Below, in pieces: positions 52,456-56,400 of a DNA stretch of 64,000 nt (position 1 is its first letter; each line of letters starts with the position of its first letter). Made by a program: the position numbers and the translations under genes. Origin of the DNA: Escherichia coli (GTDB lineage Bacteria > Pseudomonadota > Gammaproteobacteria > Enterobacterales > Enterobacteriaceae); the NCBI RefSeq assembly GCF_013122565.1, contig NZ_CP053258.1. The stretch is one strand, 5' to 3'. The notes under the pieces are model-generated. The model was not told the DNA's origin, made no database searches, and saw only the letters and a program-made list of their open reading frames with translations.

Positions 52456-53506
52456 GCGCGATGCAATCAATCATATTCGGCAGTTTGGCGGGCGTCTGGA
52501 TCGCTTCCGTAAATCGGTCGGCGGCTCTGGCGACGGCGGTCGTAACGCGCCGAAACGCGCGAAATCCTCGCCAAAACCGGTAAATCGCAAAACCAACGTT
52601 TTCAACGAACAGGTGCGCTATGCCTTCCACGGCGCATTGCAGGATCTGAAAAGCAAACCGTTCGCCACGTTTTTAACGGTGATGGTTATCGCCATCTCCC
52701 TGACGCTGCCCAGCGTCTGTTATATGGTGTACAAAAACGTTAACCAGGCGGCGACGCAGTATTATCCGTCACCGCAAATCACTGTTTACTTGCAAAAAAC
52801 GCTGGACGATGACGCCGCTGCGGGCGTGGTGGCACAGTTGCAGGCCGAGCAAGGCGTGGAGAAAGTGAACTATCTTTCTCGTGAAGATGCACTGGGCGAG
52901 TTCCGTAACTGGTCTGGTTTTGGTGGTGCGCTGGATATGCTGGAAGAAAACCCGCTTCCGGCAGTGGCGGTGGTGATCCCGAAACTCGATTTTCAGGGGA
53001 CGGAGTCACTCAATACGCTGCGCGACCGTATCACGCAGATTAACGGCATTGACGAAGTGCGGATGGATGACAGCTGGTTTGCCCGCCTGGCGGCGTTGAC
53101 CGGGCTGGTCGGGCGCGTTTCGGCGATGATCGGCGTGTTGATGGTGGCGGCAGTGTTCCTCGTCATCGGTAACAGTGTACGCCTGAGTATCTTTGCTCGT
53201 CGTGACTCCATTAACGTGCAGAAACTGATTGGTGCAACGGATGGTTTCATCCTGCGCCCGTTCCTGTACGGTGGCGCATTGCTGGGGTTTTCTGGCGCAT
53301 TGTTGTCACTAATTTTGTCAGAAATTCTGGTACTGCGATTGTCATCGGCGGTTGCGGAAGTGGCACAGGTTTTCGGAACGAAGTTTGATATCAATGGCTT
53401 ATCGTTCGATGAATGCCTGCTATTGCTGCTGGTATGCTCGATGATTGGCTGGGTGGCAGCGTGGCTTGCCACGGTACAACATTTACGCCACTTTACGCCT
53501 GAATAA
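52448..53506 (+). CDS. ftsX: Cell-division permease-like protein FtsX (352 aa from MNKRDAINH)
   Basis: 4-TM FtsX-type translation; 8-nt overlap with ftsE. Confidence 0.9.
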
Positions 53507-53628
53507 TAAAAGCGTGTTATACTCTTTCCCTGCAATGGGTTCCGTAGCAGGGAAAGAGATCCCGTTGTCTCTTCCCGGTATTTCATCTCTATGTCACATT
53601 TTGTGCGTAATTTATTCACAAGCTTGCA

Positions 53629-53658
53629 TTGAACTTGTGGATAAAATCACGGTCTGAT
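53629..53658 (+). promoter_or_regulatory. rpoH sigmaE-dependent promoter (P3) overlapping a DnaA box
   Basis: GAACTT -N16- TCTGA matches the sigmaE consensus; the embedded tgtggataa is the reverse complement of the DnaA box TTATCCACA. Confidence 0.7.
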
Positions 53659-53750
53659 AAAACAGTGAATGATAACCTCGTTGCTCTTAAGCTCTGGCAC
53701 AGTTGTTGCTACCACTGAAGCGCCAGAAGATATCGATTGAGAGGATTTGA

Positions 53751-54605
53751 ATGACTGACAAAATGCAAAGTTTAGCTTTAGCCCCAGTTGGCAACCTGGA
53801 TTCCTACATCCGGGCAGCTAACGCGTGGCCGATGTTGTCGGCTGACGAGGAGCGGGCGCTGGCTGAAAAGCTGCATTACCATGGCGATCTGGAAGCAGCT
53901 AAAACGCTGATCCTGTCTCACCTGCGGTTTGTTGTTCATATTGCTCGTAATTATGCGGGCTATGGCCTGCCACAGGCGGATTTGATTCAGGAAGGTAACA
54001 TCGGCCTGATGAAAGCAGTGCGCCGTTTCAACCCGGAAGTGGGTGTGCGCCTGGTCTCCTTCGCCGTTCACTGGATCAAAGCAGAGATCCACGAATACGT
54101 TCTGCGTAACTGGCGTATCGTCAAAGTTGCGACCACCAAAGCGCAGCGCAAACTGTTCTTCAACCTGCGTAAAACCAAGCAGCGTCTGGGCTGGTTTAAC
54201 CAGGATGAAGTCGAAATGGTGGCCCGTGAACTGGGCGTAACCAGCAAAGACGTACGTGAGATGGAATCACGTATGGCGGCACAGGACATGACCTTTGACC
54301 TGTCTTCCGACGACGATTCCGACAGCCAGCCGATGGCACCGGTGCTCTATCTGCAGGATAAATCATCTAACTTTGCCGACGGCATTGAAGATGATAACTG
54401 GGAAGAGCAGGCAGCAAACCGTCTGACCGACGCGATGCAGGGTCTGGACGAACGCAGCCAGGACATCATCCGCGCGCGCTGGCTGGACGAAGACAACAAG
54501 TCCACGTTGCAGGAACTGGCTGACCGTTACGGTGTTTCCGCTGAGCGTGTGCGCCAGCTGGAAAAGAACGCGATGAAAAAACTGCGCGCTGCTATTGAAG
54601 CGTAA
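53751..54605 (+). CDS. rpoH: RNA polymerase sigma-32 (heat-shock sigma factor RpoH, 284 aa)
   Basis: Full-length match to RpoH, including the [14 protein letters not shown] region. Confidence 0.95.
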
Positions 54606-56127: not shown

Positions 56128-56394
56128 ATGTCTGCTGTTAAAAAGCAGCGTATCGATCTGCGTTTAACTGACGATGACAAAAGTATGATTGAGGAAGCTG
56201 CAGCGATATCTAATCAGTCCGTCAGCCAATTTATGTTGAACAGCGCTTCGCAGCGGGCTGCGGAAGTGATTGAACAGCATCGGCGGGTGATCCTCAATGA
56301 GGAATCCTGGACGCGGGTGATGGATGCGCTGAGTAATCCACCGTCACCAGGTGAAAAGCTAAAACGTGCGGCAAAACGTCTTCAGGGAATGTAA
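56128..56394 (+). CDS. DUF1778 (RHH-like) antitoxin of a GNAT-type toxin-antitoxin pair (88 aa); resembles AtaR/TacA-type antitoxins
   Basis: Small protein followed 7 bp later by a GNAT acetyltransferase ORF; typical antitoxin-toxin order and size; not present at this junction in K-12 (recollection). Confidence 0.6.
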   Translation: MSAVKKQRIDLRLTDDDKSMIEEAAAISNQSVSQFMLNSASQRAAEVIEQHRRVILNEESWTRVMDALSNPPSPGEKLKRAAKRLQGM

Positions 56395-56400
56395 TAATTT

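Follow-up and report, generated by a model that had tools for sequence, protein, structure and literature searches.

The promoter element found upstream of rpoH in a 64,000-nucleotide stretch of DNA (hereafter the window, to whose first letter all positions refer) is the rpoH P3 promoter of Escherichia coli with its DnaA boxes, that is, the known element itself and not a relative of it. With high confidence, we propose that this promoter is read by the σE holoenzyme (EσE), that DnaA bound to a perfect consensus box (box 1) occludes its -35 region and represses it, and that overlapping sites serve CRP and CytR.

Results

The window carries the E. coli rpoH locus and its P3 promoter

The open reading frames (ORFs) around the site come in the order ftsY, ftsE, ftsX, an ORF of 284 amino acids located at 53751-54605, and livJ. 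The 284-residue product is RpoH, as indicated by a score of 430.5 bits on the equivalog model TIGR02392 (cut-off 323.1). When a 501-bp query spanning the site was compared to 5426 complete E. coli genomes, matches were found in 5425 of them, all chromosomal and all annotated as lying between ftsX and rpoH. The window is a segment of the E. coli chromosome encompassing ftsYEX-rpoH-livJ, and the gene annotation for which the promoter had been put forward as an internal check, in an earlier reading made from the sequence alone (the sequence-only reading), is sound.

Between positions 53480 and 53780, a single-nucleotide polymorphism (at 53560) separates the window from E. coli K-12 MG1655, the two sequences being otherwise identical and devoid of indels relative to each other; positions in NC_000913.3 (K-12) are obtained by subtracting the window position from 3,654,534. 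Owing to this near-identity, published work on the K-12 promoter is directly applicable here. Compared to rpoH P3 of K-12, the element has the same sequence, the same ftsX-rpoH context and the same DnaA-bound sequence, and nothing substantive differs. A 71-bp stretch appeared to be absent from about 480 E. coli genomes. This most probably reflects the megablast word size and not true loss, since polymorphisms in the linker and at 53651 would leave no exact 28-mer in this stretch and the 501-bp query had matched all genomes but one.

Read directly, positions 53629-53658 are ttGAACTTgtggataaaatcacggTCTGAt. The coordinates of the promoter elements and of the other features discussed below are compiled in Table 1. 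The heptamer tGAACTT (53630-53636) matches six of the seven bases of the -35 consensus GGAACTT, and the full motif GAACTT-N16-TCTGA, which lies ~95 bp 5′ of rpoH, occurs once in the window versus 0.02 times expected from shuffled sequences. Known σE promoters are defined by GGAACTT, a median spacer of 16 nt, a TCAAA element with an invariant C, a distance of ~6 nt to a purine start and A/T-rich upstream sequences (PMC1851643, PMC1312014). With its 6/7 match at -35, its 16-nt spacer and the invariant C present in the -10 element, the geometry of the window element fits this consensus. The median 6-nt discriminator and the purine start typical of σE promoters further lead to the prediction that P3 transcription starts at A 53664.

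RpoE was first identified through rpoH P3 (PMC8103513), and this promoter, described as "exclusively transcribed by sigma-E", is a standard reporter of σE activity (PMC1851643, PMC1312014). Together with the sequence identity with K-12, this literature supports the view that P3 transcription would be σE-dependent in the strain from which the window originates. The proposal of the sequence-only reading that GAACTT-N16-TCTGA is a σE promoter upstream of rpoH is thereby upheld, the promoter elements having been read directly, the downstream ORF confirmed as RpoH and the region found to be that of K-12. A full-text search of the literature found no paper printing the E. coli P3 sequence.

Table 1 Features of the rpoH promoter region, in window coordinates
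Feature	Position	Strand	Remarks
DnaA box 2, TTATTCACA	53612-53620	+	8/9 match; found by relaxed search; fixed 24-bp offset in relatives
CytR-like octamer, CTTGCATT	53623-53630	+	In linker between the DnaA boxes; resembles the CytR octamer consensus
Degenerate DnaA half-site, TTCAATGCA	53626-53634	-	4/9 match; from the double-box model of the ChIP-seq study; covers GAAC of the -35
σE -35 element of rpoH P3, GAACTT	53631-53636	+	Every base retained in 49-50 of the 50 aligned enterobacterial sequences
DnaA box 1, perfect consensus TTATCCACA	53636-53644	-	Only perfect box in the 64-kb window
CRP-like core, TGTGG-ATAAAA-TCACG	53636-53651		8/10 match to TGTGA-N6-TCACA; overlies box 1 and spacer
P3 spacer, 16 nt	53637-53652	+	Nucleotides 1-8, DnaA box; 11-14, TCAC; last G, extended -10
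σE -10 element, TCTGA	53653-53657	+	TC and final A match the TCAAA consensus; likewise retained (49-50 of 50)
Predicted P3 transcription start, A	53664	+	6 nt past the -10; 87 nt before ATG
rpoH coding sequence (σ32)	53751-54605	+	P3-driven gene; profile match and annotation

A perfect DnaA box straddles the -35 element and the spacer of P3

The nonamer tgtggataa at 53636-53644 is the reverse complement of the consensus DnaA box TTATCCACA. The sequence-only reading had located a DnaA box within the P3 spacer; the perfect box is indeed there, but it is not wholly contained in the spacer, as its first base, T53636, doubles as the 3′-terminal base of the -35 hexamer, leaving spacer bases 1-8 to complete it. 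The number of such boxes is unremarkable: one perfect TTATCCACA occurs in the window versus 0.51 expected, and 37% of the shuffled sequences contained at least one. What matters is that box 1 lies within a promoter of 27 bp and that it is conserved.

In published DnaA ChIP-seq experiments, 16 regions were found to be bound, of which the entry named "rpoH", with the sequence tTTATCCACAagTTCAATGCAa, showed a 4x enrichment, the lowest of the set (PMC11317965), a value that counts against a strong effect of DnaA at this site. The sequence tTTATCCACAagTTCAATGCAa is the exact reverse complement of positions 53624-53645 of the window. In the same study, the genome had 32 consensus boxes, no more than 13 of which were DnaA-bound, the rpoH box being one of these (PMC11317965). 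Although the footnote to Table 1 of that paper cites NC_000913.2, its oriC and rpoH coordinates fit only NC_000913.3, and in this numbering the reported peak (3,600,944) falls ~35-55 bp from box 1. As cited by several papers, Wang and Kaguni (1989; JBC 264:7338) reported that DnaA binds the rpoH promoter region and represses it. The σE dependence of P3, the DnaA ChIP-seq signal and this cited repression agree with what the sequence-only reading had said of the known multi-input control of rpoH. The rpoH promoters that DnaA represses would be P3 and the neighboring σ70 promoter, P4.

Box 1 is conserved with P3 in close relatives of E. coli

The conservation of the element was analyzed in metagenome contigs, which were scanned with a pattern built on the rpoH ribosome-binding site and first codons and independent of the promoter itself. 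Upstream sequence of 200 nt or more was available for 116 loci, which yielded 53 distinct sequences, every one of which displayed the σE motif. A perfect TGTGGATAA was found at the homologous place in 49 of the 53; one further sequence departed from it at one base only, the T that also belongs to the -35 element, and three were devoid of the box. Two of the box-less groups encode a full-length RpoH 83-85% identical to that of E. coli, while the ORF of the third (L130) is truncated, which precluded scoring. The box was present at all loci for which RpoH could be scored and reached ~88% identity or more.

Individual columns were next compared in an alignment of 50 distinct sequences anchored on the σE hexamers only and thus independent of the box. 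None of the eight columns of the box half of the spacer was variable versus six of eight in the other half (Fisher p=0.007, with the caveat that the 53 distinct sequences share phylogenetic ancestry, so that column counts overstate their independence), and all ten columns of the 10-bp linker separating the two DnaA boxes varied. Positions 53637-53644 were invariant, 53645-53646 and 53651 were variable, and the TCAC at 53647-53650 was conserved in 48-50 of the 50 sequences. The ATAA at 53641-53644 occupies positions that are free for σE and that fall in the free N6 of the CRP-like core, yet it was invariant in 50/50 sequences; thus, only the DnaA box explains the conservation of ATAA.

Variant alleles sampled within E. 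coli differed at linker positions 53621-53623 (AGC, AAC or GCG) and at 53651 (G or T), and never in the σE hexamers or the DnaA boxes. The T at 53651 is the majority state across the Enterobacteriaceae.

Two explanations of box 1 fare poorly in light of these data. That the box arose by chance in an ordinary σE promoter would fit the single perfect copy per 64 kb, which is close to expectation, but its retention inside the promoter in about 50 distinct sequences, amid variable bases of the spacer and linker on either side, together with published in vivo DnaA occupancy (PMC11317965), effectively refutes this origin and leaves it with a negligible probability. Equally improbable is that the box is chiefly a DnaA-titrating or replication-linked site and not an operator for the repression of rpoH: chromosomal DnaA boxes do contribute to titration, but the study reporting this counts rpoH among the regulatory targets and does not assign it to the high-density region near oriC (PMC12371093), and the exact, conserved overlap with promoter elements argues for a promoter-linked role.

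A second DnaA box converges on box 1

The promoter region contains a second DnaA box, missing from the sequence-only reading, which is inverted relative to box 1 and converges on it over a 15-bp gap. At the position of box 2, 33 of the 50 distinct sequences fit TTATNCACA, wherein the fifth base is degenerate (T, A, C or G): TTATTCACA was found in 24 of them, TTATACACA in five, and TTATCCACA and TTATGCACA in two each. The other 17 sequences differ at positions 1, 3 or 4, ten of them reading CTATTCACA. The CACA of box 2 was invariant throughout the 50 sequences.

The double-box rule derived from the ChIP-seq data places the second box 2-3 bp away from the first and in the same orientation (PMC11317965). 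At rpoH, the only partner with this arrangement is the degenerate 4/9 half-site TTCAATGCA, the non-promoter bases of which fall in the poorly conserved linker. Despite a distance and an orientation that depart from the 2-3-bp rule, the sequence comparisons favor 53612-53620 over TTCAATGCA as the probable second real box.

A CRP-like core overlaps the DnaA box and the spacer, and a CytR-like octamer lies in the linker

The CRP-like core overlying box 1 is the only match of at least 8/10 in the interval 53480-53750; 18 such matches occur across the 64-kb window, making the motif alone weak. The conserved TCAC at 53647-53650, which DnaA leaves unexplained, fits the right half-site of CRP. The octamer CTTGCATT located in the linker resembles the CytR octamer, and its commonest form in relatives is GTTGCATG/T. 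The CRP-like core and the CytR-like octamer are consistent with the published control of rpoH by cAMP-CRP and CytR, and the close relatives of E. coli are described as sharing a conserved CRP-CytR cassette at rpoH (PMC3454398). Judging from its motifs, the P3 spacer with its DnaA box and CRP-like site would be a composite operator.

The overlap of these motifs raises the best-surviving alternative, namely that TGTGGATAA is conserved mainly as the left half of the CRP site (TGTGG-N6-TCACG) and/or as the -35 element of P4, the DnaA match being incidental and of little effect in vivo. The constraint on TGTGG could come from CRP or from the P4 -35 instead of from DnaA, TTGTGG at 53635-53640 being presumably the -35-like element of P4. 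Added to the 8/10 core at 53636-53651 and the conserved TCAC are the conserved CRP-CytR cassette (PMC3454398) and the DnaA enrichment of just 4x in a genome where 13 of 32 consensus boxes are bound (PMC11317965). Set against this are the ATAA at 53641-53644, invariant in 50/50 sequences while the next two bases vary, the place of the rpoH box among those 13 (PMC11317965), and the presence of a second TTATNCACA-type box at a fixed distance. CRP as the sole cause of spacer conservation is ruled out by the invariant ATAA in its N6, and we consider the alternative as a whole, with P4 included, unlikely.

Other features of the locus

A σ54-type motif, TGGCAC-N5-TTGCT, is present at 53695-53710, 41 nt upstream of the rpoH start codon, and is kept as TGGCAT-N5-TTGC in Enterobacter and Citrobacter. 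It corresponds to P6, the σ54-dependent rpoH promoter already published (Janaszak 2007, cited in PMC3661553).

Just 3′ of the ftsX stop codon, a strong hairpin with 12 bp (CUCUUUCCCUGC...GCAGGGAAAGAG; 53522-53558; -25.6 kcal/mol; z = -7.0) surrounds the likely P1 start (TATACT, 53518-53523) and is not followed by a U-run. The core of its stem is kept in Enterobacter and Citrobacter, and its loop differs. A generic scan of the intergenic region for σ70 promoters and terminators returned one weak promoter match near the start codon and no terminator, and did not recover the published P1, P4 and P5 promoters.

Elsewhere in the window, this strain differs from K-12 in carrying ataRT beside livJ. 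The ataR/ataT pair (56128-56928, between livJ and panM) is a type II toxin-antitoxin system composed of a TacA-like antitoxin and a GNAT acetyltransferase toxin. It is accessory, being found in 1624 of 5426 E. coli genomes, and the window allele is 95-99% identical to nearly all of these. The divergence of this allele hints at a source strain outside the common E. coli lineages.

The spacer DnaA box is restricted to close relatives, and other lineages carry CIRCE

The comparison was extended to the Proteobacteria by a protein-anchored scan, with a single genome taken from each species, which provided 80 rpoH loci; 81 sequences were compared. Of the 81, 44 contained a σE-type motif, defined as GAACTT (with at most one mismatch), N15-17 and TCnnA, in the 400 nt preceding rpoH, versus 5 in reverse-strand, 2 in coding and 1 in downstream controls. 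For Shewanella oneidensis, the RpoE-dependent promoter of rpoH has been published, and it is the very element that a relaxed form of the scan found in the Shewanella locus (L016), which validates the approach.

Apart from the window, Enterobacter (L002) and Citrobacter (L017), none of the 81 sequences contained a DnaA box in the spacer. Acerihabitans, an uncultured Enterobacterales metagenome-assembled genome, Haemophilus and Pseudomonas lack the box but harbor the σE motif, which in some cases emerged from the relaxed scan alone; Photorhabdus showed neither a σE-type promoter nor the box in the strict or relaxed scan. A perfect TGTGGATAA lies at -103 from the rpoH start in Vibrio hannami (L018), outside any σE promoter. 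As it is missing from two other Vibrio loci, it is probably there by chance.

A CIRCE element (TTAGCACTC-N9-GAGTGCTAA) was found upstream of rpoH in 36 of the 81 loci versus 0/81 controls. Where a σE-type promoter was present as well (21 loci), CIRCE overlaps the -10 element in 20, its left arm supplying the "TC". In the CIRCE-bearing loci (within L021-L081), the element sits ~50-180 nt upstream of rpoH; that of L054 spans -116 to -68, counted from the start codon. The presence of CIRCE upstream of rpoH had been noted earlier (PMC545781). Other proteobacterial σE/AlgU-type rpoH promoters likewise consist of GAACTT-N16/17-TCnnA located ~70-200 nt upstream of the gene, but they are devoid of the spacer DnaA box and many carry instead a CIRCE/HrcA operator over the -10 element.

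Discussion

In the mechanism that we propose for P3, EσE would recognize GAACTT and TCTGA and initiate near 53664, producing an 87-nt leader. DnaA on box 1 would block access of the polymerase to the -35 region and thereby repress the promoter, presumably by steric occlusion. A second DnaA protomer may sit on the weak site at 53626-53634, which covers the rest of the -35 element, and/or DnaA on box 1 may cooperate with box 2. From the geometry of the region, box 1 would also overlap the -35 region of the σ70 promoter P4, and CRP and CytR would use overlapping sites.

The rpoH promoter resembles those of dnaA, mioC, uvrB and nrdA in that a consensus TTATCCACA box located at the promoter, in vivo binding of DnaA and negative regulation have been reported for all of them; it differs in that the target at rpoH is an ECF (σE) promoter, whereas theirs are σ70 promoters. 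Relative to the other DnaA-bound regions, rpoH stands apart by the lowest ChIP enrichment, an adjacent partner matching at only 4/9 positions, and a conserved second box that is 15 bp off and inverted.

That P3 carries a DnaA box is already known and was described decades ago, so that its recognition here is correct but ordinary; the connection between DnaA, σE and rpoH was published as early as 1989, and a ChIP-seq study confirmed it anew in 2024. The value of the present analysis is mainly that of a positive control, showing that a real, characterized composite element can be recognized from raw sequence. Its additions are modest and consist of a per-position view of conservation that separates the constraints exerted by DnaA, CRP and σE on the spacer, and of the finding that the box is confined to close E. 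coli relatives.

The element links the response to envelope stress (σE), the heat-shock regulon (σ32) and the initiator of replication (DnaA), and repression by DnaA would couple the output of rpoH to the state of this initiator. On a broader evolutionary scale, we lean toward the interpretation, on balance the more plausible one, that the σE promoter of rpoH is an ancient and widely conserved platform, that the DnaA input is a lineage-specific addition, absent where RpoH identity to E. coli falls to ~85% or less, and that repressor operators differing between lineages were inserted into this platform at one and the same site, a DnaA box and a CRP-like site in the core Enterobacteriaceae and CIRCE/HrcA in many Beta- and non-enteric Gammaproteobacteria.
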